From NCBI GenBank assembly GCA_030950365.1, contig JAUZRQ010000040.1, positions 13,195 through 77,194 of the forward strand: 64,000 nt of DNA, read 5' to 3'. This document shows positions 7,760 to 28,829 of the stretch, in pieces. The position numbers were made by a program, and so were the translations under genes. Position 1 is the stretch's first letter. Each line of letters starts with the position of its first letter. A model generated the notes under the pieces. It saw nothing but the letters and a program-made list of their open reading frames with translations, made no database searches and was not told where the DNA came from. Source of the DNA: Candidatus Zhuqueibacterota bacterium. Lineage in GTDB: Bacteria > Zhuqueibacterota > Zhuqueibacteria > Zhuqueibacterales > Geothermadaptataceae.

Positions 7760-7765
7760 AAAGCT

Positions 7766-12389: not shown

Positions 12390-12398
12390 TTTTAAAAC

Positions 12399-13307
12399 AT
12401 GTATTCTTGCTTTTGTGGAGAAAAACGATTCATGATTATTTTGAAGCGAACCGGCTGGCTAGTCTGGATGGCCGTGGTCGTTGTCGCGTGCACAGGGAGT
12501 CGAGTTATGTACAAAAACACCGGCTTTGTGGAAGCCAACGGAGTGCGTCTGTATTACGAACAAATCGGTCAGGGACCGCACCTGGTGCTCATTGAAGGCC
12601 TGGGGGTGGCTACCTGGCTGTGGGAGAAGCAGGTGCCGGAGTTGTCCCGGCATTTCCGCCTGCTGATTTACGATAACCGGGGCGTTGGGCGTTCAGACAA
12701 GCCGGGCGGGCCGTACAGCATTGCCATGCTGGCCGATGACCTCAAGGCACTGCTCGATTCGTTGGATATCCGCAAGACGTATGTGCTGGGCGTGTCCATG
12801 GGCGGGTTCATTGCGCTGGATTTTGCTTACCGGTATCCGGAGTATGTTGATCGATTGGTGCTGGTGAGTACCAGCGCCGGCGGTCCGGATCACGTGCCGA
12901 TGAGCCAGGACGTGCTGCAGGAGATGCTCGCCACCGACGGCACTCCCGAGGAGCTGGTCCGGCGCAAACTGGCGCTGGCCTTTTCGGAGGACTTTATGCG
13001 CCGTCCGGAATTTGACCATCAGGTGCAGGTGCGGCTGCAGAATCCACAGCCGCCGGAGGCGTTCATGGCGCAGGTTGCCGCTGGGGCGTCGTTCAATCTC
13101 TCGGAAGAAGTGAAGGCGATTCGCATCCCGGCGCTGGTAATGGCCGCCACGGGAGACCGGGTGGTGCCAGTGCAAAATGCGCATAACCTGGCGGCCAAGC
13201 TGCCGAACAGTCAGCTAAAAATTTACGACGGTTATGGTCACCAGTTTTTTGTGGAAATTCCGCAGGTATTTAACCGAGATGTTATTGAATTTTTGCAACA
13301 CAAGTAA
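12399..13307 (+). CDS. exported alpha/beta hydrolase (lipoprotein-like)
   Basis: Probable start Met12 at 12432 (MIILKRTGWLVWMAVVVVACTG, signal peptide plus Cys). NRGVGRSDKP, nucleophile elbow GVSMGGF, C-terminal GYGHQFF. Paralogous to the gene at 17386-18291. Confidence 0.8.
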   Translation: MYSCFCGEKRFMIILKRTGWLVWMAVVVVACTGSRVMYKNTGFVEANGVRLYYEQIGQGPHLVLIEGLGVATWLWEKQVPELSRHFRLLIYDNRGVGRSDKPGGPYSIAMLADDLKALLDSLDIRKTYVLGVSMGGFIALDFAYRYPEYVDRLVLVSTSAGGPDHVPMSQDVLQEMLATDGTPEELVRRKLALAFSEDFMRRPEFDHQVQVRLQNPQPPEAFMAQVAAGASFNLSEEVKAIRIPALVMAATGDRVVPVQNAHNLAAKLPNSQLKIYDGYGHQFFVEIPQVFNRDVIEFLQHK

Positions 13308-13364
13308 TCCCCGTGCATGCCGGCACGGTCACGAGAACAGGGAATCCGGAAAGGTGTCCATCTC

Positions 13365-13892
13365 ATGGATCGGTTAGTAGATGCCATTGTCGAAGATTTT
13401 GGTAATGGTTATGCAAGCTTCGGGCATAGCGAGCTCATGGGCCGCGTTGTCGGTCTGCTGCTTTGCGCGCACCGTCCAATGACTCTGGAAGACATCAGTC
13501 ATGAGCTACACGTGAGCAAGAGCCCGGTCAACCAGATTTGCAAACGGTTGGAGGAGCTGCAGCTCATCCGCAAGGCGTGGGTCAAGGGTGAACGCAAATT
13601 TCATTACCAAATCGTGGACAACGTGTTTTTGCAGGCAAGCATCAATCTGTCGCGGCTGAATGAGGGCAATTTGCAGATTGCCGAGCGCCATCTGGCCACG
13701 GTGGCCCGACGGCTTCAAGAGGCTGAGGGCGAGGAAAAGGAACGGTTGCGTCTGATCTGCAAGCGGTTCATCGAGATGCGAGAGTTTTACCATCACTTGC
13801 TGCGTTCGTATCGCAATTTCATCGAGGAGTGGCAGGTAGCGCGCAACCAGCTGCCGGATGTGGACACGTACCTGAAGCAATACCGGCTCTGA
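13365..13892 (+). CDS. GbsR/MarR-like winged-helix transcriptional regulator (paralog)
   Basis: ORF 13317.. trimmed to MDRLVDAIVEDFG. wHTH region MTLEDISHELHVSKSPVNQICKRLEELQLIRKAWVKGERKFHYQI. Confidence 0.7.
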   Translation: MDRLVDAIVEDFGNGYASFGHSELMGRVVGLLLCAHRPMTLEDISHELHVSKSPVNQICKRLEELQLIRKAWVKGERKFHYQIVDNVFLQASINLSRLNEGNLQIAERHLATVARRLQEAEGEEKERLRLICKRFIEMREFYHHLLRSYRNFIEEWQVARNQLPDVDTYLKQYRL

Positions 13893-14038
13893 TGGGCAGA
13901 GGGCAGTCAACCTCGCATGGGCATTGGGGATACCCCTGCTGGGAGTGGGAGGTTGGAAACATACGGGAGAAATATCGCCAGTCGCATAAACCGCCTGGCT
14001 GGCGCTAGATCACTTCATTTAAACTGCGGGAGGTTCCT

Positions 14039-16474
14039 ATGAGGTTCTTATTCAAACGATTCTGTCAGTGGGGGACTGGTCTGGTGCTGACCATGCTCGG
14101 TTTGGGCATAAATGTTTTGCCTGCCCTGGGGCAGACCGGCACCATTAGTGGCACCGTGAAAGCCAATGATACCGGGGAACCACTGATTGGGGCTAATGTA
14201 GTCATCGTCAACACCTCGCTCGGCAGCGCTACCAATACCAATGGACAATTTGAAATACAGCAAGTGCCACCCGGCCAGTACACCGTAAAGGCGGTCTTCA
14301 TCGGCTATCACAGCATGATTCAGGAAGTGCGCCTCAATGCCGGCGAAACCGTGACCGTGAATTTCGATCTCGAGCCGTCCACGGTGATGGGCGAGGAGAT
14401 CGTGGTCAGCGCCTCGCGGCGGGTCGAGAAACTGACCGAGGCCCCGGCCACGATCATGGTCGTCAATGCGGATGAGATTGCGCGCACCACGGCCTTTACA
14501 TACGGCGATGCACTGGTGAAAGCCAAAGGCGTGGATATCTACCGCACCGGCATCGATGGCGTGGGCATCAACGCACGCGGCTTTATGACGGCGTACAGCT
14601 ACCGCATGCAGCTCATGGCAGACGGCAAAAATGCCATGCTCCCGGGGGCCGGATTGGCTGCCGGCAACATTTTGCCGGTTCCAAAAGAAGACATCGCGCG
14701 CATCGAAACCATTCTTGGGCCGGCCTCGGCGCTGTATGGTCCCAATGCTCACAACGGTTTGGTCAACGTAGTCACCAAGCATCCGCGTGATTATCCGGGA
14801 ACCACCATTGCCTTTGGCGGCGGCCAAAACGCCATTTTAACCGGCCGTTTGCGTCATGCGCAGATTGTGAACGACAAACTGGCATTCAAGGTCAATGCTG
14901 AATATCTGAAAGGTCAGAACTGGACCAAGAATGATACGGTTGGGTATGACAACTCTGGCAAGGCTTATCTCGAAAATCCGGACCACGGTATTTTGAATTT
15001 TCGTACCCTGGCGGCGCTATATTATAACTTCACTCCAGAAATTGAACTCATGATTGAGGGCGGCTATAGTGTCACCAATTCGATCGGCACGACGAATGTG
15101 GGCCGGAATCAGATTCTGGGGTGGAAGTACGATTACGAGACCATCCGTCTATCCTCGCCGCATTTCTTTATTCAATTTTACCGCACCGGCAACGACGCCG
15201 GCCGGACGCACGCCATCGGTAACAAGGTGGCCATGCTTATTGCCATGGCCAATGCCGGTGTGTCCATGACGGAAGACGAAGCTATTGATAAGGTTAAATA
15301 TATCGACAAGTCCAAGCGCTATGATTTCGAGGCCCAGTACAATACCGAGCTCGCCGGTTTCAGGCTGATCGCCGGATTCAACTACGAAGACAACCGGCCG
15401 GTGAGCAATGGCACCTATCTGTCGGACACCACGGGCAATGAGCTGAAAATCCGTCAGGCCGGGTTTTACGGTCAGGTAGAGCGTGATCTGGGCGAGCGCC
15501 TGAAGCTGGTGCTGGCCGGCCGCTACGACACGCACGATAATTACAAATCGCAATTCAGTCCGCGGGCGGCGGTAGTATTCAAAGTGCCGGGCTATGGCAA
15601 TCTGCGCGTGACCTACAACCGTGCCTTCCAGGCGCCGGCGATTTTGCAGCAGGAACTGTATCTTGGCTTTGGCATGCTGCCCGGCGGCATTCCAGTGCGG
15701 TTGCGTGGCAATGGCCACGGATTCACGCTTTCCGACGGCACCGTCATCGACCCGCTGGAGCCGGAAGTCAACGAAACGTTTGAAATCGGCTACAAAGGCC
15801 TGCTCACCAAAAAGTTGTTCATTGACGTGAACGCTTATCGCAGCAAATACCAGAATTTCATCAGTCCGCTGACGGCCATCACCTCGTTTGCGGATCCGGC
15901 CAATCCAGTATTTCCGGTGAAGCAGGGCGATGTGGCCATTCCGTTCGAATACGTGCTCACCTATCGCAACTTCGGCCGGGTGAACATCAACGGCCTCGAA
16001 CTCGGCGTGAGCTACCAGATCGATCCACGCGTGAATGTGTGGTTCAATTATTCTTACATCAATCCGGTCGATCTCGAAGATCCGGAAAACGATTTCAACA
16101 AAGACGGCAAATTTGAGGAGCTGTCGTTTAATACACCGCAAAACAAGTTTAACTTCGGCGCCGGATTTGCCAATCTGCTCGGCCGGGGCACCTACCTGTC
16201 CATTGCCGTGCGCCGGGTGGATGAGTACGATTTCATCTCCGGTCGGCATCGCGCCACCAAAGCGGGCAAAGGAACCGGTAGTTTCAATTTCAAAGACGAG
16301 GGACCGCTAGGCGGCTTCACCACCGTGGATCTGGGCTTTTCCTATCAATTCAATCCGAAGGCACAGTTGAATATTTCGGCGACGAATATTTTTGACACGC
16401 CGTTGCGGGAGATGGTGGCCTCGCCGGCCACGCGGCGCCTGATCACCGCCGAAGTGCGCTATCAAGTGCAATAA
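14039..16474 (+). CDS. TonB-dependent receptor with N-terminal carboxypeptidase-regulatory-like domain
   Basis: Signal peptide. GTISGTVKANDTGEPLIGANVVIVNTSLGSATNTNGQFEIQQVPPGQYTVKAVFIGYHS is CarboxypepD_reg-like. Also a plug region (IVVSASRRVEKLTEAPATIMVV), a long beta-barrel, and a C-terminal aromatic-rich end. Confidence 0.9.
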   Translation: MRFLFKRFCQWGTGLVLTMLGLGINVLPALGQTGTISGTVKANDTGEPLIGANVVIVNTSLGSATNTNGQFEIQQVPPGQYTVKAVFIGYHSMIQEVRLNAGETVTVNFDLEPSTVMGEEIVVSASRRVEKLTEAPATIMVVNADEIARTTAFTYGDALVKAKGVDIYRTGIDGVGINARGFMTAYSYRMQLMADGKNAMLPGAGLAAGNILPVPKEDIARIETILGPASALYGPNAHNGLVNVVTKHPRDYPGTTIAFGGGQNAILTGRLRHAQIVNDKLAFKVNAEYLKGQNWTKNDTVGYDNSGKAYLENPDHGILNFRTLAALYYNFTPEIELMIEGGYSVTNSIGTTNVGRNQILGWKYDYETIRLSSPHFFIQFYRTGNDAGRTHAIGNKVAMLIAMANAGVSMTEDEAIDKVKYIDKSKRYDFEAQYNTELAGFRLIAGFNYEDNRPVSNGTYLSDTTGNELKIRQAGFYGQVERDLGERLKLVLAGRYDTHDNYKSQFSPRAAVVFKVPGYGNLRVTYNRAFQAPAILQQELYLGFGMLPGGIPVRLRGNGHGFTLSDGTVIDPLEPEVNETFEIGYKGLLTKKLFIDVNAYRSKYQNFISPLTAITSFADPANPVFPVKQGDVAIPFEYVLTYRNFGRVNINGLELGVSYQIDPRVNVWFNYSYINPVDLEDPENDFNKDGKFEELSFNTPQNKFNFGAGFANLLGRGTYLSIAVRRVDEYDFISGRHRATKAGKGTGSFNFKDEGPLGGFTTVDLGFSYQFNPKAQLNISATNIFDTPLREMVASPATRRLITAEVRYQVQ

Positions 16475-16478
16475 GCAC

Positions 16479-16515
16479 AAAGGCGTCCGGTTTTCTACCG
16501 GGCGCCTTGGTTTTT
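16479..16515 (+). terminator. rho-independent terminator after the TonB-dependent receptor gene
   Basis: AAAGGCGTCCGG-ttttcta-CCGGGCGCCTT (one G-U pair) followed by GGTTTTT. Confidence 0.7.
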
Positions 16516-16664
16516 AGATCCGGCGCGAGTGGAGCTAAGACGCTGTAGCCGCCGCTGCATACGACGGGCGAAATCTGACGGAAATCGTATGATATGCGCA
16601 TCCCACAGTGGGGTGCGATTATTGAACAATTGGATGAAAAAAATTGAAATCACAGGAATTAACC

Positions 16665-17405
16665 ATGCGTTTGCAGGGAAAAATAGCCATTGTGACCGGC
16701 GGCGCGCGGGGCATCGGACGGGAAACCTGCCTGACGTTTGCCCGTGAAGGCGCCCGCGTGGTCATTGCGGATCTGGATTCGGAAAACGGCGAAGCTCTCG
16801 TCGAAGAAATCAACCAGCAGGGCAATGCGCTGTTCGTAAGAACCGACATCACCCGGCCGGAACAGGTGGATGCGCTGATGCAGGCGACCCTCGATCGCTT
16901 CGGACGGCTGGATATTCTGGTCAACAATGCCGGCATTACCGCGGATGCCCGGCTGGTGAAAATGGACCTGGAGCAGTGGCAGCGTGTCATTGATGTGAAT
17001 TTGAAGGGAGTGTTTCTGTGCGGTCAGGCGGCGGCGCGCATCATGGAGCAGCAGGGCGAAGGCGGCGTGATTCTGAACGCCGCCTCTATCGTGGCGCTGT
17101 ACGGCAATTTCGGCCAGAGCAACTACGTCGCCACCAAGGCCGGGGTGATTGGCATGACCAGAACCTGGGCGCGCGAGCTGGGCCGCAGCCAGATCCGTGT
17201 CAATGCCGTGGCCCCGGGGTTCATTGCCACCGAGATGATTCAGACCATTCCCGAAAAGGTCATCGCCATGGTGAAAGAAAAAACGCCGCTGGGCCGCATG
17301 GGCGAGCCGAAGGATGTGGCCAATGCCTATCTTTTTCTAGCCTCCGACGAGGCGCGTTTTATCACTGGCGCCGTGTTGTCCGTGGATGGCGGGCTGGTAT
17401 TTTAG
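16665..17405 (+). CDS. classical short-chain dehydrogenase/reductase (FabG-like 3-oxoacyl reductase family)
   Basis: ORF 16644.. trimmed to MRLQGKIAIVTGGARGIG (TGxxxGxG). Also NNAG, the SNYVATKAG (YxxxK) region, and PGFIAT. Confidence 0.85.
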   Translation: MRLQGKIAIVTGGARGIGRETCLTFAREGARVVIADLDSENGEALVEEINQQGNALFVRTDITRPEQVDALMQATLDRFGRLDILVNNAGITADARLVKMDLEQWQRVIDVNLKGVFLCGQAAARIMEQQGEGGVILNAASIVALYGNFGQSNYVATKAGVIGMTRTWARELGRSQIRVNAVAPGFIATEMIQTIPEKVIAMVKEKTPLGRMGEPKDVANAYLFLASDEARFITGAVLSVDGGLVF

Positions 17406-18291
17406 CCGTAAGTTTAAAACACAATCATTTGTCGATTGGAGCAGTGGATTGGAAAAGCGAATTCGTGTCAACGGTATCGAGCTACATGTGGAAGCAGAGG
17501 GAAGGGGTGAGCCGTTGCTGTGTATCCCCGGGCTGGGCGCTGGGAATTGGTTGTGGCACTGGAACCGCGCCGCGCTGACGCGGCATTTTCGCTGCATTTT
17601 CCCCGAGCTGCGCGGCAGCGGGCGTTCGGACAAACCGGACGAGCGCTATACGATCTCCTTGTTTGCGCACGATATGAAGGCCCTCATGGATGCGCTCGGC
17701 GTCGAACAGGCGCATGTGCTGGCGGCGTCCATGGGCGGCTTTGTGGCGCAGTACATGGCGGCCAACTGGCCCGATCGCGTGGGCAAGCTGGTGCTGGCCA
17801 GCACCTCGCTGGGCGGGCAGGTGCAGGAAGGCCCCACCGGCGACGTGCTCAGCCGGCTGATCCGGCCTCGCGGCAAAACCAAAAAGGACCGGCTCGAGGA
17901 TGCTTACCCGTTGAATTTCAGTCGCGAATTTTGCCAGCGGCAGCGCCCGGTGCTGGATTTCATCACCGAGTGGCGCGTGCGGCTGCCGCAGCCGGAGTAT
18001 GCGTATTACCGGCAGCTTCTGGCCGGCAACGCCTTCGACGGCCGGCATCTGGCGCGCAAAATCAAAGCGCCAACCCTCATTTGCGCTGGTAGAGACGATC
18101 CGACGGTGCCGCTGGTAAATGCGCAGACACTCAAAAATTATATCCCGCAATCCCGTTTGCTGGTGTTCGAAGGCAAGCATCTGTTTTTTGTTGAACATGC
18201 GGATGCCTTCAACGAGGCCGTGCTGGCGTTTCTGCTGCAGGACCGCACTCCTCAGCCCGAGAAAATCGCGGCCGAAAAAGCGGTATCCTAA
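17386..18291 (+). CDS. alpha/beta hydrolase (cytoplasmic paralog of 12399-13307)
   Basis: VNGIELHVEAEGRGEPLLCIPGLGAGNWLW, LRGSGRSDKP, nucleophile elbow AASMGGF, C-terminal GKHLFFVEH. The ATG at 17386 overlaps the SDR gene by 20 nt. A TTG at 17449 is an alternative start. Confidence 0.8.
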   Translation: MAGWYFSRKFKTQSFVDWSSGLEKRIRVNGIELHVEAEGRGEPLLCIPGLGAGNWLWHWNRAALTRHFRCIFPELRGSGRSDKPDERYTISLFAHDMKALMDALGVEQAHVLAASMGGFVAQYMAANWPDRVGKLVLASTSLGGQVQEGPTGDVLSRLIRPRGKTKKDRLEDAYPLNFSREFCQRQRPVLDFITEWRVRLPQPEYAYYRQLLAGNAFDGRHLARKIKAPTLICAGRDDPTVPLVNAQTLKNYIPQSRLLVFEGKHLFFVEHADAFNEAVLAFLLQDRTPQPEKIAAEKAVS

Positions 18292-18356
18292 CCATTGGTC
18301 GGACTCTCTGTCCAGCCAGAATGGAGTAAACAGCGGATCGTGAACGAAAATGAACC

Positions 18357-19886
18357 ATGTATGTGGGTGACTATCTCGCGCGGCGGTGTTTGTATTCGCC
18401 GAACAAACTCGCGCTGGTGGATGCCACCCAGTCCCCGCCGCGCCGGCTGACCTACGCCGAGCTGAACGAGCGGGCCAACCGGCTCGCCAATGCGCTGCAG
18501 GCGCGCGGCATCCGCAAAGGCGATCGCGTGGGCATGTTGGCCTACGATGGCCTGCATGTTTATGACCTGTTTTTCGCCTGCGGCAAACTCGGCGCGATCT
18601 TCGTGCCGTTCAACTGGCGATTGCACGCGCGCGAGCTGGAGCGGCTGATCGGCAAAACCGAGCCGGCGCTGCTGTTTTACGAGACCGAGCCGCCCATGCA
18701 GGACGTGGCCGAGGAGCTGCGCGACAAAACCAGCTCTGACTGGGTGCCACTTTCGGCAGACGATGGCGATTCGCTGCGGCGCTGGCTGGACTCCGCCACG
18801 GAGGCGCCGGTAAGCTGCTACACGGTCACCGAGCTGGATACTGCCTGTTTGCTATTTACCGGCGGCACCACCGGTGAGCCCAAAGCCGCGCAAATCAGCC
18901 ACAGGCAGATCGTCTGGAATGCGTTCAACACCCACCTTGCCGATGTCCAGACCACCGACGTGTTCCTGAACATTTTTCCGATGTTTCACACCGGCGGTCT
19001 GTTCGCCTTCACCCTGCCGCTGCTGATCCTCGGCGGCACCATCGTGCAGCTCCGCCGGTTCGAGCCGGATTGGGTACTGGAGCTGATCGAACAGGAGCGC
19101 GTGACTCTGCTGGCCGGCGTGCCGACCATGTTTCAGGCGCTCACCGAATCGCCACGCTGGCCTGAGGCCGATCTCGGTTCGCTGCGGTATTGCCTGAGCG
19201 GCGGTGCGCCCATGCCGGTGCCGCTCATCCGCAAATACGCCAAAGAAAAAGGCGTGGTGTTCCGGCAGGGGTTCGGCATGACCGAATTCGGGCCGAGCGT
19301 GTTTTCGCTGTCCGCCGAGGATGCCGAACGCAAAGCGGGTTCAATCGGAATGCCCAACTTTTTTGTGGATGCGCGCGTGGTGGATGTGGACACCGGCCGG
19401 CCGCTACCACCGGGCGAGATCGGCGAGCTGGTGCTGCGCGGTCCCACGGCTACCACGGGATATTACAATGACCCCGAAGCCACTGCCCGGCTGTTCGACG
19501 TCGAGGGCTTTTTGCACACCGGCGACCTGGCCTATGTGGATGACGAGGGATATTTTTTTATTGTCGATCGCCTAAAGGACATGTTCATCAGCGGCGGTGA
19601 GAATGTTTACCCGGCCGAAATCGAAGCCGTGCTGTATCAGCACCCGGCGGTGGCGCGGTGCGCGGTGGTTAGCGTGCCCGATGAACGCTGGGGGCAGGTG
19701 GGCGTGGCGTTCGTAGTGCGCCGGACCGGCAAATCGGTAACGGAAGCCAAATTGCTAACGTTTTTGCGCGAGCACCTGGCGCGGTACAAAGTGCCAAAAC
19801 GGATCGTGTTTCGAGAGACGCTGCCGGTCTCCGGCGCCGGGAAGATTTTGAAAAAGGCGCTGCGGGAAGAGGCCCAACGGGTGTGA
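18357..19886 (+). CDS. AMP-dependent acyl-CoA synthetase/ligase (adenylate-forming family)
   Basis: LFTGGTTGEPKA, GFGMTE, TGDLAYVDDEGYFFIVDRLKDMFISGGENVYPAEIE, and PVSGAGKILKK near the C-terminus. Confidence 0.9.
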   Translation: MYVGDYLARRCLYSPNKLALVDATQSPPRRLTYAELNERANRLANALQARGIRKGDRVGMLAYDGLHVYDLFFACGKLGAIFVPFNWRLHARELERLIGKTEPALLFYETEPPMQDVAEELRDKTSSDWVPLSADDGDSLRRWLDSATEAPVSCYTVTELDTACLLFTGGTTGEPKAAQISHRQIVWNAFNTHLADVQTTDVFLNIFPMFHTGGLFAFTLPLLILGGTIVQLRRFEPDWVLELIEQERVTLLAGVPTMFQALTESPRWPEADLGSLRYCLSGGAPMPVPLIRKYAKEKGVVFRQGFGMTEFGPSVFSLSAEDAERKAGSIGMPNFFVDARVVDVDTGRPLPPGEIGELVLRGPTATTGYYNDPEATARLFDVEGFLHTGDLAYVDDEGYFFIVDRLKDMFISGGENVYPAEIEAVLYQHPAVARCAVVSVPDERWGQVGVAFVVRRTGKSVTEAKLLTFLREHLARYKVPKRIVFRETLPVSGAGKILKKALREEAQRV

Positions 19887-20176
19887 TGGGGCTTACGACA
19901 ATGGCCCAGAAGGTACAAAGGAAAAACTGACGATGGGGCGGCAATTATTCAGAATCGTGTGGTCATTCTTGATAAATATGGACATTGAAGTTGTTATTCG
20001 CGGACGAAGCAGGTTATTAAATCAAATTCGGGCATTTCAGAAACTCTTTTTCGTTCACTTTTGATAGCCAGAAGGCCAGCTCGCTGTACATACTGAATTT
20101 TTCTTGTTAATCCTTTTTTCTTGTGAATCCTGTCAAAAAGGAACAAGCAATCCATACAAATCAACATAAAAGCTGT

Positions 20177-21268
20177 ATGAAAAATCCAGAAGCCAATCAT
20201 CGGCCGCCCATTGGCATTGCCGGGCTGGGCTTTTATCTGCCGAAACAGGTGATGACCTCGGCAGACATTGCCCACGAGAGCGGCCTGCCCGAATGGGTGA
20301 TCCGCGAAAAATTTGGCATCAAGCAAAAATACATGGCCGGTCCGGATGAACACCCGAATCAGATGGCCGTGTGGGCCGTCGAAGCCTGTCTGCAGGAGGC
20401 CGGCATCGCACCGGATGAAATCGATGTGGTGCTGTGCACCACTGAGGAGTGGAAGGAGTACCTGCTCTGGACGGCCGGCATCGACCTGGCGCATCAGATC
20501 GGCGCGCGCCGGGCGTGGGCGCTGGATCTGCACATGCGCTGCTGCACCACCATCGCGGCCATGCAGCTTGCCCGCGACCTGATGTGGAGCAACGAGGACA
20601 TCCGCACCGTGCTCATCGCCGGTGGCTATTCGGTAGGCCATCGCATCAATCTGAAAAATCACCGCACCAGTTTCATGTTCAACATCGCCGCGGGAGCCGG
20701 CGCCATGCTGCTGCGCAAAGGCCACGCAGAAAACGTGCTGCTGGGCACTCACCTCATCACCGACGGTTCCATGAGCCGGCACGTCATCATCCCGGCCAGC
20801 GGCACGGTGGAGCACCCTACCGACGCGGCGGTGCGCGAGGGCCGGTTTTATTTCGATCTCGTCGAGCCCGAAGCAATGAAAGAGCGGCTGAACGCCGTTT
20901 CCATGCAGAACTGGCTGCGTTGCATTGATGAAGCGCTACGAAAAAGCGGCCCGGCACCGCACGGCCGCCCATACACCCGCGCCGATATCGATTACCTCAA
21001 CATGATCCTGGTCAAGCCTTCCGCCCACCGCGAGATGCTGAACCACCTGGGCCTGTGCGAGGAGCAATCGGTGTATCTTGATGAATTCGGGCACATCGGC
21101 GAGCAGGACAGCATCCTGTCGATGATCGAAGGCCGGCGCCGCGGCCGGCTCAAGCCCGGCGATCTCATGATCATGGTGGCGGCGGGCATCGGCTATGTGT
21201 GGGGCGCGGCCTGTGTACGCTGGGGGCCGGTGAATGCCAGTGCAGAACATCGGGAGGACGCGCCATGA
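20177..21268 (+). CDS. KAS III (FabH)-like thiolase-fold condensing enzyme, non-canonical active-site motifs
   Basis: ORF 20123.. trimmed to MKNPEANHRPPIGIAGLGFYLP. FabH-like N-terminus (GLGFYLPKQVMTSADI), candidate nucleophile in LHMRCCTTIAAM, C-terminal AAGIGYVWGAACVRW. The canonical HQAN and GNTS motifs appear replaced by KPSAH and GHIGEQDS. Confidence 0.75.
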   Translation: MKNPEANHRPPIGIAGLGFYLPKQVMTSADIAHESGLPEWVIREKFGIKQKYMAGPDEHPNQMAVWAVEACLQEAGIAPDEIDVVLCTTEEWKEYLLWTAGIDLAHQIGARRAWALDLHMRCCTTIAAMQLARDLMWSNEDIRTVLIAGGYSVGHRINLKNHRTSFMFNIAAGAGAMLLRKGHAENVLLGTHLITDGSMSRHVIIPASGTVEHPTDAAVREGRFYFDLVEPEAMKERLNAVSMQNWLRCIDEALRKSGPAPHGRPYTRADIDYLNMILVKPSAHREMLNHLGLCEEQSVYLDEFGHIGEQDSILSMIEGRRRGRLKPGDLMIMVAAGIGYVWGAACVRWGPVNASAEHREDAP

Positions 21269-22824
21269 GCGATGTTGTACCCTCCGCCTTCGTCACCGAT
21301 TGGCTGGAGAAACGCGCGCAGCTCACGCCGGAACGCGTGGCCATCGAGGACGTAACCGGCGAAACCGTGCTGACCTACCGCGATTGGAACCGCCGCGTGA
21401 ACCGCACCGCGCATTTTCTGCAGCGCCTCGGCGTGCAAAAAGGCGACCGCGTCTCGGTGTATGCCAGCAACTGCATCGAATACCTTGAAGTGCTGTTCGC
21501 GTGCGGGAAAATGGGCGCCATCCTGCACAATCTGAACTGGCGGCTCACGGTGCACGAACTGCGCGGCATCATAGATGATGCCGGGCCGCGCGTGCTGATC
21601 TACTCCAGCGAATGGCGCGAGCAGGTGAACGAGCTACGGCCGCATGCGCAGAGCGTGACCCATTTCATCGCCATGGATGCCAGAGCGCATCCCGATGATC
21701 TGGCGCTGAATGATCGCGAGGCCATGTCCGAAAACCCACCGGAACGCCCGGATCTAAAACCCGACGATCCGTGGGCGATTTTTTACACCGGCGGCACCAC
21801 CGGTCTGCCCAAAGGCGCGGTGCTCACCCACGCCAATATGACCTGGAACTGCATCAATACCGTGGTGAGCTGGGGCCTGACGCAGGACGATGCTGCGCCG
21901 TTGCAACTGCCGCTGTTTCACATCGGCGGGCCGAATATTTTCATGTTGCCGCTGGTGCACGTGGGCGGCCGCACTGTTTTGTGCAAGGGGTTCGACGTGG
22001 AGCAGACATTTGATTTGATCGATTCCGGCCGCATCAATCTGTACGTGGGCGTGCCCACCATGTATATCATGATGCAGCAGCATCCGCGCTGGGCGCAGGC
22101 GGATTTCTCGCGCATGAAGCTGGTCATCAGCGGCGGCGCGCCGTGTCCGACGCCGGTGATGCAGGCATTCTGGGACAGAGGTGTGGATTTCAAACTGGGC
22201 TACGGCCTGACCGAGGCCACCGGCAACAATTTCTGGCTGCCAGAAGCGGATGTGCGCCGCAAACCGGGTTCCGTGGGCTTCCCGCTGTTTCACATCGATA
22301 TGAAAATCGTGCGTCCCGATGGCACGGAGTGCGCGCCGGATGAGGCTGGCGAGCTGCTGATCCGCGGGCCGCACGTGTTTGCCGGCTACTGGCAAAAGCC
22401 GGAAGAAACTCGGCAGGCGCTGCGGAATGGCTGGCTGTATACCGGCGATCTGGCCCGCCGCGATGCCGAAGGCTATTTTACCATCATCGGGCGCAGCAAG
22501 GAGATGTTCATCAGCGGCGGTGAAAACGTGTATCCAGCGGAAATCGAGAGCGTGCTGCACGGGCATCCGGCCGTGGCCGAGGCCGCGGTAGTCGGCGTGC
22601 CGGATGCGAAATGGGGCGAGGTGGGCGAGGCGTTTGTGGTGCTGCAGGAAGGCGAAACGGCGGATGAGGCGTCGCTGCGGGAGTACCTGAGCGAACGGCT
22701 GGCGAAATACAAGATACCGCAGCGCATCCGGTTCGTCTCTGAATTGCCGAAAACGGCCATCGGCAAGATTGACAAGAAACAGTTGCGGCAAATGGCGATG
22801 AATGATGGGCAGGATGAAATGTGA
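21265..22824 (+). CDS. AMP-dependent acyl-CoA synthetase/ligase (second copy)
   Basis: ORF 21199.. trimmed to MSDVVPSAFV, giving a 4-nt ATGA overlap with the KAS III-like stop. FYTGGTTGLPKG, GYGLTE, TGDLARRDAEGYFTIIGRSKEMFISGGENVYPAEIE. Confidence 0.9.
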   Translation: MSDVVPSAFVTDWLEKRAQLTPERVAIEDVTGETVLTYRDWNRRVNRTAHFLQRLGVQKGDRVSVYASNCIEYLEVLFACGKMGAILHNLNWRLTVHELRGIIDDAGPRVLIYSSEWREQVNELRPHAQSVTHFIAMDARAHPDDLALNDREAMSENPPERPDLKPDDPWAIFYTGGTTGLPKGAVLTHANMTWNCINTVVSWGLTQDDAAPLQLPLFHIGGPNIFMLPLVHVGGRTVLCKGFDVEQTFDLIDSGRINLYVGVPTMYIMMQQHPRWAQADFSRMKLVISGGAPCPTPVMQAFWDRGVDFKLGYGLTEATGNNFWLPEADVRRKPGSVGFPLFHIDMKIVRPDGTECAPDEAGELLIRGPHVFAGYWQKPEETRQALRNGWLYTGDLARRDAEGYFTIIGRSKEMFISGGENVYPAEIESVLHGHPAVAEAAVVGVPDAKWGEVGEAFVVLQEGETADEASLREYLSERLAKYKIPQRIRFVSELPKTAIGKIDKKQLRQMAMNDGQDEM

Positions 22825-22997
22825 TGGCTGCATGTTTTTGCAAGCCGGTTTGTAATTGTGGAGGACGCTGAGCTCAATGCATCATTAGAGAAAGGTCTCC
22901 GCACTTTCTATGGTTTTTATTACAACTCTGCGGTTTCTCGAACGAAGACCATGCATTCGACAGTGTAATCCAAATCCATTGGATCGGAGGGAGTGGC

Positions 22998-24506
22998 ATG
23001 ACCCTGGCGTGGGCGTTGTTTCTGTTGTACATGATCGGTACGGCCTATCTGGGCTGGCGCGGTTTTCGGAAAACCACCAATTTTGGCAGTTTCGCCATTG
23101 GCAGCGGTGACTTGTCGCCGTATGTGGTGGGCATCACCATGGCCGCAAGCGTGGCCTCCGCCGCTACATTTATTATCAATCCCGGCTTCATCTATGTCCA
23201 TGGTTTGGCGGCGTTCATGCATTTTGTGGTCGCCGTTGGCAGTGGATTTTGCCTCATGCTGGTGGTGCTCTCCTTTCGCTTCCGCCGGCTGGGCGAGAGC
23301 ACGCATGCCCTTACCATGCCGCACTGGATCGGCAATCGGTTCGGTTCTCGCGGGTTCGCCGCCTTCTTTGCGCTGGTCAATCTATTTGCGCTCGCCTTTG
23401 TGGTACTCATTGTTGGCGGACTTTCCATCGTCATGCAGCAGCTTCTCGGCGTGTCCAACACCGTTGCGCTGGTGATTATGCTCACCTTCGTCACCGGCTA
23501 CATTTTTCTCGGTGGCACCTATGCCCACGTGTTCACCAACACCCTGCAGGGCACGCTGATGATCCTGGTGTCTCTTCTGATCCTGGGCTCGGGCATTCCA
23601 CTGCTGCTTGACCATTCGCCGGGCTTTTTTGAGCGTTTGGCCGCTCAGGATGCCAATCTGGTCAAATGGGTCAATCCTGCCAGCAATCTGTATAACAATG
23701 TGTTTTCCATTTACATCAGCGGCTTTCTCATTGGTGCGGCATTGGTGTGCCAGCCGCACATCCTCACCAAAGCGCTGTATTTGAAAAGCGACCGCCAGGT
23801 GCGGCGCTACCTGTTCATTGGAGTAGCGGTGCTAGCGCTGTTTTTTTTGTTGCCATTTGCAGGCTTTTATGCCCGGATCACCCTGCCACAGGACGCGCTT
23901 ATGGATCCAGTCACCGGCGTATTCCGGCAGGACCTGGCGATGACCCTGTACATCAAGCAGGCGTTCCCGGGCTGGACGTTCACGGTCATCAGCGTGGTGC
24001 TGTTGGCCGCGGGCATGTCCACCCTGGACGGCATACTGGTATCGCTGTCCACCATCACCGCCAACGACTTGTTTTTAAACGTGATCGGACGGTTCAGCAA
24101 GCGGGAGCGATCCGAAGAGGAACGGCTGGCGCTGGCCTACCGTGCGAGCCATGTAATCCTTATCATCATCGCCGTGGCGGCGTTTATCATCTGCCTGCGA
24201 CCGCCAAAGCTGCTGGGCATTTTTGGGCAGGTGGGTGTGTATGGCATGGCCGTGGCCGCCGTGCCGCCGCTTTTGGGCGGCATTCTGTTCCGCCGACTAC
24301 CGCTGTGGCTGGTATGGGCCACATCGGCGCTTGCCCTGGCGACGCATTTTTTGTTGTATTTTTTCGGCGCCGAGTGGTTCCCCGGTGCTCCGCTCACCTT
24401 CGCCAATCCGGGCGTGCCAGCCACTCTGGCGATCCTTGTCAGCATGGTGCCTACCCTGGCCATTGGTTTTTATCTGAATCGAACCCATCACCAATTTTTT
24501 GCTTGA
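22998..24506 (+). CDS. sodium:solute symporter (SSS) family transporter
   Basis: About 13 hydrophobic segments. The N-terminus LFLLYMIGTAYLGWRGFRKTTNFGSFAIGSGDLSPYVVGITMAAS is typical of the SSS family. Confidence 0.8.
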   Translation: MTLAWALFLLYMIGTAYLGWRGFRKTTNFGSFAIGSGDLSPYVVGITMAASVASAATFIINPGFIYVHGLAAFMHFVVAVGSGFCLMLVVLSFRFRRLGESTHALTMPHWIGNRFGSRGFAAFFALVNLFALAFVVLIVGGLSIVMQQLLGVSNTVALVIMLTFVTGYIFLGGTYAHVFTNTLQGTLMILVSLLILGSGIPLLLDHSPGFFERLAAQDANLVKWVNPASNLYNNVFSIYISGFLIGAALVCQPHILTKALYLKSDRQVRRYLFIGVAVLALFFLLPFAGFYARITLPQDALMDPVTGVFRQDLAMTLYIKQAFPGWTFTVISVVLLAAGMSTLDGILVSLSTITANDLFLNVIGRFSKRERSEEERLALAYRASHVILIIIAVAAFIICLRPPKLLGIFGQVGVYGMAVAAVPPLLGGILFRRLPLWLVWATSALALATHFLLYFFGAEWFPGAPLTFANPGVPATLAILVSMVPTLAIGFYLNRTHHQFFA

Positions 24507-24568
24507 AATCTGGATTTAAATTGTAGATATTGGTTAAAAATGATCAAACTTTTCATACGAGATTACCC

Positions 24569-24976
24569 ATGCCGGTCATAACCGTTGAAAAGCCTTTGCG
24601 TGACAAATTGGGCGATGATGGTGTGACGTCCCTGGTTAATCTCATCAATCAAGCCCTTGATGAACAAAAGAACAATATCATTCAATTTGTAGAAGAAAAA
24701 TTTGAGCACCGGTTGTCGGAAGAGCTTGCGAAAATCCGTGTTGAAATGGCTGAAATGAAGGCTGAGCTTCGAAATGAAATGGCTGAAATGAAGGCCGAGC
24801 TTCGAAATGAAATGGCTGAAATAAAAGTCGAATTAAAAGGCGAGATGTCGGAGATGAAGTCAGGGCTCGTTGCGGAAATTCAGTCCGTCAGAAGTGAGAT
24901 GATCAAATGGATGTTTGCGTTCTGGGTGGGACAGATTGCCGTCCTTGTTGGATTGTTGTTTGCTTTTTTTAGATAG
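24569..24976 (+). CDS. DUF1640-like coiled-coil protein with C-terminal TM anchor
   Basis: ORF 24530.. trimmed to MPVITVEKPL. Tandem 11-aa repeats EMAEMKAELRN, then IKWMFAFWVGQIAVLVGLLFAFF. First gene of the low-GC block. Confidence 0.55.
   Translation: MPVITVEKPLRDKLGDDGVTSLVNLINQALDEQKNNIIQFVEEKFEHRLSEELAKIRVEMAEMKAELRNEMAEMKAELRNEMAEIKVELKGEMSEMKSGLVAEIQSVRSEMIKWMFAFWVGQIAVLVGLLFAFFR
24743..24874 (+). repeat. 33-bp tandem repeat x4 inside the CDS
   Basis: Units 1 and 2 (24743-24775, 24776-24808) differ by 1 nt. Units 3 and 4 are progressively degenerate. They encode EMAEMKAELRN / EMAEMKAELRN / EMAEIKVELKG / EMSEMKSGLVA. Confidence 0.9.
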
Positions 24977-25749
24977 GGGAGTATCTCAAGTATCTCTTTA
25001 CCATAACATTCTTGGTCCTGAATTGATCAATTTTTCTTCTATAAAAAATTTCCTGACATTCAGAAGATTCTAAACCTTACCGTAGCGAATCAGGAATCAG
25101 AATTGATTTAATCGGTTTTATTCAACAGTACCTCGTACCTCGCCCCAAGGACGTCTTGCTTTAATGGATCAATCTGTCATGTTCCCTGGTAAGCTGAGTT
25201 GCCTGTGGAAAGAGTTGACGGATTCGACAGACCTTCTTCATGGGCAAAGATATTAATTCATAGCTTTACGCACAATTTGTTGCGGCCTGTCCTGCTTATA
25301 AATATAATAACGCACATAAGTGATCACCATAAAGCAGCAATAGGCCCCAAAAATGTTCATACGAGTCAAGGCAAACTCCTTTTAATCTTCAGACTTGCAT
25401 CATTGAATATAAACATTGTAGTTGAGATTCAATATTCTCCTGCATATTTAGTAAATATCCGGATAGTCTTCCAAATAGCGGATCATCGCCTGATCCTAAA
25501 AGCCGCTATCCCTGATTACAAACATAGCTTCATGAGTAGGATATTGTTGACTGATGGCTCGGACCAGGCGATCACCCGCATGCCATCACTGGCATGATTA
25601 GAATCATAGCTGCCAGGAGGCCCCAATTCTTTACCTTGTTAGGTGTGTGTTTTTGGTTTTTTATGTGAATAACGTAATCCTCTATAATATCATACGTTAG
25701 CCTCCAGAAAGATGTGTTAGAACTATAATCGATCCGTGTAAGTCAAACT

Positions 25750-27057
25750 TTAAGCCGCAATCTCCTCCTCGAATTGTTCTTCTTCTGTTGAACCTTTCAA
25801 CGCCGTAGTTGACGATTGGCCGCCACCAATCGCAATTTGCACCTGGTCGAAATATCCCGCACCTACAAATTTTTGATGCTTTATGGCACTATAGCCACAG
25901 GTAGTCTCGAGTTCAAATTCGTATTCCTGCAGTTTGGAGTAAGCAGCCATGCCCTGATCTTTGTACTGACGCGCAAGGTCAAACATGGCAGTGTTAAGAC
26001 TGTGGAAGCCAGCCAGAGTCACAAACTGAAATTTGTACCCCATTTCACCTAGTTTTTCCTGAAATTCTGCGATAGTTTTATCGTCTAAATTTTTCTTCCA
26101 ATTGAAAGATGGCGAACAATTATAAGCAAGCAGTTTACCGGGAAATTTTTCATGGATTGCCTGAGCGAATTCACGTGCTTCGCCCAGGTCTGGTTTGGAA
26201 GTTTCACACCAAATCATATCGGCATAAGGTACATACGCTAGAGCTCTGGCGATGGCATAATCAAGGCCGCCTTTTATTCGGAAAAAGCCCTCGGTAGTTC
26301 TTTCACCGGTGATGAACGGCTCATCCACCTCGTCAAAATCACTTCGGATCAAGCTGGCTGAATTGGCATCGGTCCGAGCAATGAGGACGGTGGGGACCCC
26401 CAGAACATCGGCTGCAAGCCTTGCCGCAACCAACTTTTGCACAAACTCCCGCTCCGGGACCAGAACCTTGCCTCCCATGTGACCGCATTTTTTAAGTGAA
26501 GAAAGCTGATCTTCAAGATGGACGGCCGCAGCTCCGGCTTCAATCATCGCTTTCATTAATTCGAACGTATTTAGTGGTCCACCAAAACCGGCTTCCGCAT
26601 CGGCTACGATGGGGGCAAACCAGGAAGTATGGCCATTGTCATTCAAATGACTAATCTGGTCTGCACGCGCAAGGGCATTGTTGATCCTGCGGACAAGGTT
26701 GGGCACACTATTTACCGGATATAGACTCTGATCGGGGTACATATGATAGGCGTTATTGGCATCGGCAGCTACCTGCCATCCGCTGATATAAATGGCTTTT
26801 AAGCCTGCTTGCACCTGTTGAATCGCCTGATTGCCTGTCAAGGCTCCCAGCGCCCGAACGAACGGTTCGGTGTTTACCAGATTCCAGAACTTCTCCGCTC
26901 CCATGCGTGCAAGTGTATATTCAATCTGAATCGAACCTCGAAGTCGAACTACATCGTCGGCCGTGTAAGGACGAACAATGCCCCGCCAGCGAGGATTCTT
27001 AGCCCAGACATTGTTTAAGGCATGAATTTGTTGTTGCTTATCCATAATTTCCTCCAT
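25750..27057 (-). CDS. aceA: isocitrate lyase
   Basis: 435 aa with the signature [13 protein letters not shown], plus [19 protein letters not shown] and TDANSA motifs. Confidence 0.95.
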
Positions 27058-27060
27058 GGT

Positions 27061-28677
27061 TTAATTCAAATGTTTATAGGCAACAATGGTTAAGAATTCG
27101 GTAAAATGATTGTTTTGCACAAGCTCAGCGAGAATTTTTCTGGCAGTTTCAAATTTGCCCTGTGCATATCTTTCTTGCCCAATAACCTCTTTTATTTGCT
27201 TTAATTCCTGTGCAAGCAATTTGGTGAAAAGCGCCTCATCAATTTTTTCACCAGTTGCCAGTTTTGCCTGATGGTGATGGAGCCATTGCCAGAGCTGGCT
27301 TCTCGAAATTTCAGCCGTGGCGGCATCTTCCATCAGATTATCAATAGCCACTGCACCAATACCACGAAGCCAGGCTTCCAAATACAGAATAGCCACGCTT
27401 ATGTTGTTCCGGAAGCCATCTTCTGTTATATGCCCCTGCAAACTTCTTACATCCAGAAGGTCATTTGCTGTGACCTGAACATCTTCCCTTAGCCTTTCTT
27501 TTTGATGAGGTCGATCACCAAGGATGGCATCAAAAGCCTCTCTGGCGATCGGCACCAGATCCGGATGGGCAACCCAGGTGCCGTCAAAACCATCACCGGA
27601 TTCCCGCTCCTTGTCCTCTCGTACTTTCGCCAACGCCATTTCATTCATCAGTGGGTCCTTACGATTCGGGATAAAGGCAGCCATACCACCAATCGCATGC
27701 GCTCCACGTCTATGACAGGTTTGCACCAGAAGTTCCGTATAAGCGCGCATGAAAGGTACCGTCATGGTAACCTGGGCTCGATCCGGTAGTAAAAATTCGG
27801 GATGGTTTCGGAATTTACGAATCATGCTGAAAATGTAATCCCAGCGTCCTGCGTTTAGTCCGGCAATATGATCACGAAGTTCATATAAAATTTCTTCCAT
27901 TTCAAAGGCTGCCAGAATGTTTTCAATAAGTACCGTTGCTTTGATGGAGCCTCGTGGCAGCCCCAGTTCATCTTGAGCTAGATTAAAGACTTCGTTCCAC
28001 AGGCGGGCCTCCAGATGATTTTCTAATTTTGGCAAATAAAAATAAGGGCCACTGCCGCGATCGATTAATTTCCTTGCATTATGAAAAAAGTAGAGTCCGA
28101 AGTCAAAGAGAGAGGCGGATATGGGCTTACCATCCACCAACACATGCTTTTCAGGTAGATGCCAACCACGTGGCCGAACCAGCAGGGTGGCAACATCATC
28201 GTTTAATTGATACTGTTTCCCCTCTGGACTGGTGTAAGTGATAGTACGGTCAACCGCATCGCACAAATTCAATTGCCCCTGCAGGCAGTTTATCCAGGTT
28301 GGCGAATTGGCGTCCTCAAAGTCGGCCATAAAGGCATTGGCACCAGAGTTAAGGGCATTGATCATCATTTTGCGATCAACCGGACCAGTAATTTCCACTC
28401 GCCGGTTTTGTAAATCATCAGGGATGGGGGCAACTCTCCATGTAGTATCTTCTCGAATGCGACGAGTCTTTTCAAGGAAGTTTGGCATGGTACCCGAGTC
28501 TATCTCAGCCTGAATTTCTCTCCGTCTTTGAAGTAATTTTTCTCTTGTCTCCCCAAATTCGCGTTGCAACTTTGCTATGAAATCAAGGGCTTCCGGTGTT
28601 AAAATACGTGCACAGTCAGAAGTAAACTCCCCGATAAGTGTTACACTTTCTAATATAGATACTGCGCTTTGTGACAT
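27061..28677 (-). CDS. aceB: malate synthase A
   Basis: 538 aa, the length and layout of malate synthase [53 protein letters not shown]. Only 3 nt upstream of aceA. Confidence 0.93.
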
Positions 28678-28793
28678 AGAACTCCTCCTTAGGCTCTCTA
28701 TCCAAATTTTTATGGGAATTGAGAGAAGTCAGAACAACGCTTTTGGCATTCTCACCTCCCAGGGAATGGACTGTTTTGATCAAGCTGGTTGGA

Positions 28794-28822: not shown

Positions 28823-28829
28823 GAAAAAT

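Follow-up and report, generated by a model that had tools for sequence, protein, structure and literature searches.

A 64-kb stretch of contig JAUZRQ010000040.1 from a Candidatus Zhuqueibacterota bacterium, analysed whole and here called the window (all coordinates are window positions), carries five consecutive plus-strand genes for a short-chain dehydrogenase/reductase (SDR), an alpha/beta-hydrolase, a ligase, an enzyme of the ketoacyl synthase III (KAS III) fold and a second ligase, followed by a sodium:solute symporter (SSS). The original prediction for this locus had read the set as an Ole, beta-lactone or PpyS/MxnB-type cluster for head-to-head condensation, with import and coenzyme A (CoA) activation of an exogenous ester or acid as the alternative. 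The functional unit reaches upstream to about 11859, taking in a MarR regulator, a secreted hydrolase, a second MarR regulator and a TonB-dependent receptor (TBDR), which are co-conserved with the five genes. We consider it somewhat probable, at roughly 0.55, that the window holds an uptake-and-catabolism operon set of about 12.6 kb (11859-24506) for an exogenous ester-linked carboxylic acid. The features are as follows.

11819-11841, no strand: perfect palindrome with 8-bp arms, TTTGTCAAAAAATGCTTGACAAA
11863-11885, no strand: perfect palindrome with 8-bp arms, TTGGTAAATATCAAATTTACCAA
11859..12389, plus strand: MarR1, MarR-family regulator (Pfam MarR/MarR_2; best NCBIfam match GbsR/CudC-type, weak, 40 bits)
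12399..13307, plus strand: ABH1, exported alpha/beta-hydrolase esterase (Pfam Abhydrolase_1)
13317..13892, plus strand: MarR2, MarR-family regulator (Pfam HTH_24/MarR_2; CudC-like NCBIfam match near full length, weak)
14039..16474, plus strand: TBDR, TonB-dependent outer-membrane receptor (CarboxypepD_reg, Plug and barrel domains; Pfam, NCBIfam)
16480..16508, plus strand: strong terminator-like hairpin (12-bp stem, 8 G-C pairs, T run)
16665..17405, plus strand: SDR, classical FabG-type, NAD(H)-type, 246 aa, ATG start (NCBIfam FabG PRK05653.1-3)
17386..18291, plus strand: ABH2, cytoplasmic alpha/beta-hydrolase, 301 aa, without leader peptide (ester or thioester hydrolase by family)
18357..19886, plus strand: LIG1, ANL-superfamily acyl-CoA synthetase, 509 aa (Pfam AMP-binding and AMP-binding_C)
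19887..20176, no strand: AT-rich gap of 290 nt between LIG1 and KAS (GC 0.39 against 0.59 for the cluster)
20177..21268, plus strand: KAS, KAS III-fold enzyme, 363 aa (family NF005308/PRK06840)
21265..22824, plus strand: LIG2, acyl-CoA synthetase, 519 aa (NCBIfam PRK06187)
22998..24506, plus strand: SSS sodium:solute symporter, 502 aa (Pfam SSF; NCBIfam PanF/PutP-like, below cutoffs)

The open reading frame (ORF) listing and translation place all six genes from SDR to SSS on the plus strand at the positions first given for them, and Pfam and NCBIfam searches agree with each family assignment, including that of the TBDR at 14039. Other particulars of the original prediction also held, namely the classical 246-aa SDR, the AT-rich gap and the ATGA at 21265-21268, where the KAS stop overlaps the LIG2 start and by which LIG2 is apparently translationally coupled to KAS. 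The hairpin stands between the TBDR gene and the enzyme genes, and SSS is a predicted inner-membrane importer.

KAS matches NCBIfam NF005308 (PRK06840, '3-oxoacyl-ACP synthase') over nearly the full model length at 432 bits (cutoff 315), and lies below the cutoffs of the FabH models TIGR00747 (106 bits against 292) and PRK09352 (120 against 249). FabH is its nearest solved relative in both sequence (8e-24) and fold (Foldseek 2.7e-27), and the top Foldseek ranks are held by FabH, PqsD and BioZ (TM 0.75-0.88) for an AlphaFold model of mean pLDDT 79.6, which has low confidence in a conserved insert and a glutamate loop and does not settle active-site geometry. OleA is missing from the 56 PDB hits of KAS found by phmmer at E<=0.01, and OleA 5VXD ranks 48th by Foldseek with 16% identity, behind about 45 FabH, PqsD and BioZ chains. 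The proposal that the thiolase-fold protein is an OleA or pyrone-type condenser thereby loses its ground, as the protein is closest to FabH and the His and Asn of FabH and CorB are replaced in it.

The catalytic Cys of FabH is kept, with Cys122 of KAS aligning with Cys112 of E. coli FabH and invariant in the subfamily, whereas all members examined have Ile, Leu or Val in the FabH His244 column and His (His306 in KAS) in the Asn274 column. Five residues past His306 comes Asp311, making Cys122-His306-Asp311 a candidate triad whose His-x4-Asp dyad stands at the C-terminal GN(T/S) position. The phmmer match joins KAS 302-347 to ChlB3 292-337, and from the equal length of these ranges (the alignment was not printed) the match is probably ungapped, which would put His306 on His296 and Asp311 on Asp301 of ChlB3. 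In the match to DpsC, His306 falls on chain position 300, which we take to be native His297 after a tag offset. Cys113-His296-Asp301 is the acyltransferase triad common to ChlB3 and CerJ (PMC9573744), and the triad of CerJ is 'sequential', as in cysteine proteases (PMC5506619). CorB, on the other hand, needs all three residues of its Cys-His-Asn triad for pyrone-forming head-to-head fusion (PMC5506619).

KAS thus resembles the acyltransferases CerJ, ChlB3 and DpsC in the KAS III fold, in a nucleophile at the FabH Cys position, in the placement of His306 and Asp311 and in the loss of the FabH His244 equivalent. It differs from them in being distant (E about 1e-7 to 1e-9, with the CerJ and DpsC matches mostly in the N-terminal half) and in setting: they act in Streptomyces antibiotic biosynthesis with acyl carrier proteins (ACPs) or sugars, whereas the KAS family is found in importer-linked CoA-ligase operons. 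A point of difference from FabH is that no ACP or fab genes occur near KAS. An insert at residues ~198-238, conserved and special to the subfamily, and an invariant, subfamily-specific TTEEW loop (Glu90/Glu91), placed where FabH has its dimer-interface loop, are features of the KAS family's own. The G-H-x4-D and K-x-S motifs are retained in relatives down to ~26% identity, among which the nucleophile alternates between Cys and Ser. In active-site pattern KAS appears most like the CerJ/ChlB3 class, with acyl transfer as the predicted reaction, and its residues point to catalytic machinery of the acyl-enzyme transferase type, not of a decarboxylating or CorB-type condenser; the Glu90/Glu91 pair may leave room for some non-decarboxylative C-C chemistry. 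An HMG-CoA-synthase-like reading of TTEEW was rejected: the Glu pair is confined to the subfamily, the HMG-CoA synthase His is absent, its position not being conserved in KAS, and HMG-CoA synthase models reach E 3e-11 at best, in the N-terminal half, with 43 bits against a cutoff of 244.

LIG1 and LIG2 are 42% identical paralogs, both with Pfam scores of 302-312 bits for AMP-binding and 78-90 bits for AMP-binding_C and both with the motif GKI(L/D)KK, which includes the C-terminal catalytic Lys. The best PDB matches of both are the feruloyl-CoA synthetase structures 8WEV/8WEU (about 410-415 bits, ~45% identity by eye), with E values from 1e-121 to 1e-123 (3e-121 for LIG1 to 8WEV, 5e-123 for LIG2), followed by FadD13, MatB, MenE, FadD5, the Thermus long-chain fatty acyl-CoA synthetase and 4-coumarate ligases. 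LIG2 passes the PRK06187 long-chain-fatty-acid--CoA ligase model (505 bits, cutoff 476) and LIG1 falls just short at 470. Both therefore look like ordinary acyl-CoA-synthetase-type enzymes, and their best matches are all CoA ligases (Fcs, FadD13, MatB, MenE) in a comparison set without an OleC reference sequence. A literature search on 8WEV/8WEU returned nothing usable. The original prediction had two different acids activated and then joined; activation of two acids is plausible because the paralogs are each conserved separately (LIG1 orthologs 53-67% identical in related loci and LIG2 orthologs 55-70% in FCB-type loci), and the joining finds no support.

The SDR passes the FabG model PRK05653.1-3 (303 bits, cutoff 296), and its PDB matches are led by FabG 4NBU (4e-80), with the FabG structures 4NBW and 4NBV, the (3R)-hydroxyacyl-CoA dehydrogenase 2ET6 and BbsD also found. 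Its beta2 strand ends in Asp, and an acidic residue, mostly Asp, stands there in nearly all tabulated orthologs. An acidic residue closing beta2 is the classical NAD(H) signature of SDRs, and the enzyme is accordingly classed by its sequence as NAD(H)-type and predicted to be a (3R)-hydroxyacyl/3-oxoacyl thioester dehydrogenase.

The two hydrolases are 39% identical. ABH1 has a PcaD-like protein as its best NCBIfam match (163 bits, below cutoff) and Est1 6EB3/8V16 as its best PDB match (4e-48), and the best PDB match of ABH2 is likewise Est1 (9e-46). Both score 135-163 bits against PcaD models and 54-63 bits against haloalkane dehalogenase models; nothing usable was found in the literature on 6EB3, Est1 or uptake of 3-hydroxybutyrate oligomers. 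The N-terminus of ABH1, MIILKRTGWLVWMAVVVVAC, is a lipoprotein-type leader, and hydrophobic, signal-peptide-like leaders are present in 13 of 13 ABH1 orthologs examined, whereas ABH2 orthologs lack a leader and start straight in the catalytic domain. Since ABH1 and these orthologs bear leaders, one esterase is predicted to work outside the cytoplasm beside the TBDR, an arrangement hard to square with biosynthesis and easy to square with uptake.

Relatives of KAS number more than 3500 in databases, and the best 120 are 63-93% identical to it. Among 1.84 billion 50%-identity representatives, a single full-length one is more than 50% identical to KAS and the next relatives reach at most 42%, so the subfamily is tight and distinct. 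A scan of one genome per species gave 432 stretches encoding KAS relatives. The best 80 of these derive from metagenome-assembled genomes (MAGs) of KSB1, Calditrichaceae, 'Cytophagia', Longimicrobiales, Rubricoccaceae, Ignavibacteriaceae, Acidobacteriota, Chloroflexota, Acidimicrobiia and Bipolaricaulota, and place the module in at least 8 phyla with KAS identity across phyla of 61-73%. Co-conservation of the five genes, which had been named as a check on the original prediction, is strong over this range, and the arrangement of SDR, hydrolase, ligase, KAS and ligase recurs far beyond chance in dozens of genomes from several phyla.

Layouts were obtained by mapping the window proteins onto 85 loci. 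In the 35 loci having 6 kb or more of flank on each side, same-strand neighbours no further than 6 kb from KAS were counted. Of these full-flank loci, 94% have a ligase, 89% a hydrolase, 66% the SDR, 57% two ligases, 54% a transporter and 34% a separate thiolase; a ligase lies immediately beside KAS (gap <400 bp) in 32 of 80 loci. The layout here termed FCB-type runs ABH1-MarR-SDR-ABH2-(thiolase)-LIG1-KAS-LIG2, with a TBDR and often SSS, and its full set is seen in MAGs of KSB1, Calditrichota, Longimicrobiales, Rubricoccaceae and 'Cytophagia'. The LIG2-type gene comes after KAS in these loci, which also carry orthologs of MarR2 (46-66% identity) and SSS (64-76%). The TBDR gene lies within the cluster in 19 loci, in varying position: before SDR, between LIG1 and KAS, or after LIG2. 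In the KSB1 genome L004/L005, a HicA toxin gene and a small partner ORF on the opposite strand (11094-11458) are inserted between KAS and LIG2, breaking there the translational coupling of the window.

Other lineages keep the enzymes and exchange the importers. The Chloroflexota layout is KAS-SDR-LIG-ABH, with frequent additions of a second KAS-like gene, LIG1, a larger hydrolase, an archaeal-type thiolase, DUF35, a Liv-type ATP-binding cassette (ABC) importer and a MalT/BTAD regulator, and the Acidimicrobiia layout is TetR-KAS-LIG-ABH-ABC-LIG. In the place of SSS, KSB1 has a major facilitator superfamily (MFS) transporter resembling aromatic-acid/H+ symporters, and Chloroflexota and Acidimicrobiia have Liv-type ABC systems; monoderm-type lineages use Liv-type ABC importers, whose binding protein is of the Peripla_BP_6 family, instead of the TBDR. 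The nearest solved relatives of this binding protein are Rhodopseudomonas palustris proteins. Regulators across the loci are of MarR, TetR or MalT/BTAD type. A carnitine or quaternary-amine substrate, considered from the weak GbsR/CudC likeness of the MarR proteins, was rejected, the ABC binding proteins of relatives being Liv-type and not ProX/OpuAC-type. Importers, repressors and a signal-peptide-bearing esterase are in this way co-conserved with the enzymes, which supports the alternative first offered for the locus, a catabolic one of import and CoA activation.

The neighbours of KAS outside the FCB-type layout give some indication of its substrate. In 7 Chloroflexota loci a class III PhaC (362 bits, just under the cutoff of 365.3) lies directly before KAS-SDR-LIG; 4 of the 7 also have a class I polyhydroxyalkanoate (PHA) synthase upstream (662 bits, cutoff 623), and several encode a PhaR/PhaE-like protein. 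Several loci of Anaerolineae/Ardenticatenales have the order LIG-SDR-KAS-acyl-CoA dehydrogenase-EtfB-EtfA. A second KAS III-like paralog is present in Chloroflexota loci L003 (4622-9994), L031, L034, L036, L043, L056, L057 and L073; it keeps the Cys, has Thr and Tyr for His and Asn, and yet passes a FabH subfamily cutoff. Its partners are a ligase, a 356-aa hydrolase, a thiolase like archaeal-type acetyl-CoA acetyltransferases (NF053570, 434 bits, below the 600-bit cutoff) and DUF35, and the separate thiolases are often paired with DUF35 and this second KAS-like protein.

More distant relatives, of at most 36% identity to KAS, were found in the plasmid collection in haloarchaea, Bacillus and Brevibacillus, and give context, not function. 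That of Bacillus sp. N5-665 (36% identity; PRK06840 at 555 bits; Ser at the nucleophile position) lies in the order TetR/FadR-like regulator, PRK06839 'o-succinylbenzoate-CoA ligase', 138-aa MaoC-type hydratase and PRK06840 KAS (locus L086, 6454-13301), followed by a 621-aa NHL-repeat ScyF-like protein and an ABC binding protein. The consecutive numbers PRK06839 and PRK06840 fit families that adjoin in Bacillus genomes. For PRK06839, the label 'MenE' is likely to mislead. On Halomicrococcus plasmid NZ_CP100466 (L087, 3824-10029), a 36%-identical homolog with an overlapping start closes a Liv-type ABC importer operon that has no ligase nearby, and many Halobaculum plasmids carry similar homologs.

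(R)-3-hydroxyacyl thioesters are products or substrates of PhaC, PhaJ/MaoC-type hydratases and FabG-type SDRs alike. Because these enzymes recur around KAS, (R)-3-hydroxyacyl-CoA would seem to be the common currency of its neighbourhoods.

From the genes present and the families they belong to, the pattern of active-site residues, the signal peptide, the NAD signature, the co-conservation and the neighbours found in other lineages, we infer a catabolic direction, an order of steps, a KAS reaction and a substrate. The TBDR would carry the compound over the outer membrane, the lipoprotein esterase ABH1 would cleave it in the periplasm and the SSS symporter would bring the acid or acids into the cell, where LIG1 and LIG2 would each turn a different acid into its CoA thioester. 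The LIG2 product would acylate Cys122 of KAS, which, with its CerJ/ChlB3-type Cys-His-Asp triad, would perform an acyl-transfer or thiolytic step and not a decarboxylative or head-to-head Claisen condensation. The NAD-type SDR would oxidise a (3R)-hydroxyacyl thioester to its 3-oxo counterpart, ABH2 would split a remaining ester or thioester in the cytoplasm, and acetyl-CoA would be the end product, with MarR1 and MarR2 repressing the set until substrate is present. As substrate, our leading guess is (R)-3-hydroxyalkanoic acids in ester or oligomer form, either PHA-derived material or acyloxyacyl esters. The acid is expected to carry its 3-hydroxyl group on arrival, because the FCB-type cluster has a dehydrogenase and neither a hydratase nor an acyl-CoA dehydrogenase.

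In overall working the cluster is most like a short CoA-dependent catabolic operon. It further seems possible, if on balance doubtful, that PRK06840-type KAS proteins form a catabolic Cys/Ser-His-Asp acyl-enzyme class, linked with importers and CoA ligases across no fewer than 8 bacterial phyla and in haloarchaea, and that they catalyse a reaction so far not ascribed to this fold in degradation. Such a reaction would be, for example, the CoA-dependent thiolysis or transacylation of (R)-3-hydroxyacyl esters taken up by the cell, saving ATP, or a His/Asn-independent cleavage of 3-ketoacyl-CoA.

Several observations weigh against this catabolism of 3-hydroxyacyl esters. The cluster has no hydratase, no acyl-CoA dehydrogenase and, in this window, no thiolase, so the route to central metabolism is incomplete on paper. 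The nearest solved relative of the ligases is a feruloyl-CoA synthetase and the KSB1 MFS transporter is aromatic-acid-symporter-like, both of which favour an aromatic substrate; the hydrolases score best to PcaD/Est1-type esterases, and their similarity to PHA depolymerases, like that to meta-cleavage hydrolases, is weaker. Adjacency to PHA synthase is limited to the 7 Chloroflexota loci, and there the order phaC-KAS-SDR mimics phaC-phaA-phaB and would fit a thiolase-like or anabolic KAS. Glu90/Glu91 are a possible base for a non-decarboxylative Claisen reaction, like the Glu in HMG-CoA synthase and OleA. We know of no characterised member of the KAS subfamily, a literature search found no paper on NF005308/PRK06840, and every catalytic step of the operon is deduced. 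A link to the glyoxylate shunt, suggested by genes just downstream, was dropped, the adjacency of isocitrate lyase and malate synthase not being co-conserved and malate synthase occurring in just 1 locus.

The main rival substrate is an aromatic acid ester, of the hydroxycinnamate or phenylpropanoid kind. Esterases would release the acid, Fcs-like ligases would make its CoA thioester and the side chain would be shortened through a 3-hydroxy/3-oxo intermediate, and KAS would either cleave a C-C bond or transfer an acyl group. Hydroxycinnamate operons typically have MarR regulators, and this reading would account for the closeness of both ligases to 8WEV and of the KSB1 MFS transporter to the aromatic acid/H+ symporter family (MhpT and PcaK), for the weak resemblance of the thiolase and DUF35 partners to BbsB and BbsA, and for the LIG-MaoC-KAS order of the Bacillus relative, which fits enoyl-CoA hydration. 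The binding-protein matches favour it more weakly than the ligases or the MFS transporter do: the weaker PDB matches include the aromatic-acid binders 4EY3 and 4EVQ, and the search itself gave no ligand information. The aromatic reading is nevertheless unlikely, as an enoyl-CoA hydratase or hydratase/lyase is found neither in this window nor in any FCB-type locus, no ring-processing genes are present, the Fcs similarity (~45% by eye) is at subfamily level and the adjacency to PHA synthase is left unexplained. A second rival is a role in the PHA cycle, in which KAS and SDR would be surrogates of PhaA and PhaB, KAS reversibly forming and cleaving 3-ketoacyl-CoA in a thiolase-like, non-decarboxylative way, and the cluster would supply monomers from imported acids and re-activate released 3-hydroxy acids. 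The Chloroflexota order phaC(I)-phaR/E-like-phaC(III)-KAS-SDR-LIG agrees with this, as do the FabG-like SDR, the invariant Glu90/Glu91 beside Cys122 as a possible base and the LIG-SDR-KAS-ACAD-EtfBA loci (ACAD, acyl-CoA dehydrogenase), which have all beta-oxidation activities but thiolase. A ligase with an alpha/beta-hydrolase parallels PhaG with 3-hydroxyacid CoA ligase. The PHA cycle (PhaC, PhaA, PhaB, PhaZ, and PhaG with 3-hydroxyacid CoA ligase) is likewise centred on (R)-3-hydroxyacyl-CoA and has FabG/PhaB-like SDRs, esterases and CoA ligases; the window, however, has no PHA synthase, phasin or canonical thiolase, its SDR is NAD-type and not NADPH-type, and its secreted esterase, TBDR and other uptake genes point to exogenous material. 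With KAS lacking the enolate-stabilising His/Asn clamp of FabH, CorB and HMG-CoA synthase, a Ser nucleophile in its relatives and a separate thiolase already encoded in a third or so of full loci (34%), this role is distinctly unlikely.

Biosynthesis of an Ole-like, beta-lactone or pyrone product, with KAS joining two ligase-activated acids head-to-head, the SDR reducing and a hydrolase processing the product, is highly improbable. The window does have the four superfamilies clustered in OleABCD (also Lst and Nlt), namely thiolase fold, alpha/beta-hydrolase, ANL ligase and SDR, as well as two conserved ligase paralogs, and a KAS without decarboxylation residues and with an invariant Glu-Glu loop is compatible with a non-decarboxylative condensation. 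The components differ one by one, however. KAS lacks the Cys-His-Asn triad required in CorB, its matches place OleA far down or not at all, and its active site and phylogenetic distribution are unlike those of OleA systems; the ligases have only CoA ligases as best matches; OleB is a cytoplasmic haloalkane-dehalogenase-like enzyme, whereas the hydrolases here are PcaD/Est1-like and ABH1 has a lipoprotein leader; and OleD is an extended 3beta-HSD-like NADPH reductase, whereas the SDR is classical and NAD(H)-type. An extra ligase, importers and catabolic-type repressors are added and co-conserved, and a secondary-metabolite cluster would not be expected to show 61-73% KAS identity over at least 8 phyla. 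The placements of KAS with FabH and of the ligases with acyl-CoA synthetases are those which the original prediction had itself named as speaking against head-to-head condensation. Trios of thiolase, DUF35 and KAS III-like protein (the archaeal thiolase/HMG-CoA synthase complex, PhlACB and Streptococcus Muc) offer a further comparison: Chloroflexota clusters encode such a trio side by side, whereas the window lacks thiolase and DUF35 and its KAS is not an HMG-CoA synthase.

Enzymes of the thiolase-fold KAS III type are usually taken for biosynthetic condensers, and genome miners flag them as natural-product signals. The practical warning from this locus is that such loci are not to be mined as ole, beta-lactone or pyrone clusters. 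The KAS subfamily has one 50%-identity representative yet thousands of members, in importer-linked, repressor-controlled operons of mostly uncultured carriers (KSB1, Calditrichota, Gemmatimonadota, Rhodothermales, Chloroflexota, Acidimicrobiia and Bipolaricaulota). Knowledge of its reaction and substrate would give a function to a 'FabH-like/FadD-like/FabG-like' block common in sediment and soil metagenomes, possibly a new catabolic use of the KAS III fold. If the proteins do form a catabolic class, they would represent a widespread, previously unrecognised route for the use of polyester or acyloxyacyl necromass in sediments and soils.

At the upstream end of the operon set, the two palindromes at 11819-11885 are candidate MarR operators, and they overlap both the best sigma-70-like promoter match (11834-11862) and the annotated TTG start of MarR1. 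This overlap suggests that MarR1 is autoregulated and that its real start is probably the ATG at about 11886, not the annotated TTG. The promoter scan was not enriched over shuffled sequence (8 found, 10.3 expected). The half-site TGTCAAAAA is found again at 20131, inside the gap between LIG1 and KAS, which has conserved blocks in common with the 93%-identical relative L088 and contains no Rfam RNA element (none in 11000-26000). The TBDR gene occupies exactly the LIG1-KAS junction in 8 related loci, and the gap is a variable junction and probably an internal promoter or operator region.

Genes on either side of the operon set were also recorded. Further upstream are a third alpha/beta-hydrolase and an MFS transporter (6482-8710, plus strand) and a divergent pair on the minus strand, a class III aminotransferase and DUF6206 (9208-11416); none of these genes is near the cluster in related loci. 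Directly after SSS is a 148-aa ORF (24530-24976), not found in related loci, with weak apolipoprotein-like and coiled-coil matches, amphipathic helices and a phasin-like character. Just downstream are minus-strand genes for isocitrate lyase (25750-27057) and malate synthase (27061-28677), adjoined by an HTH_3-domain regulator (29017-30540). The region 25750-30540 has a GC content of 0.40-0.49 against about 0.58 and may be a horizontally acquired glyoxylate-shunt island. Beyond it lie four genes that put the organism in the FCB group or close to it: two type IX secretion-related ones, for a PorP/SprF-like protein (31657-33372) and a CHU_C-domain protein (34421-35290), one for a MotA/ExbB-family protein (33435-34394) and one for a VWA-domain protein of 971 aa (35367-38282).

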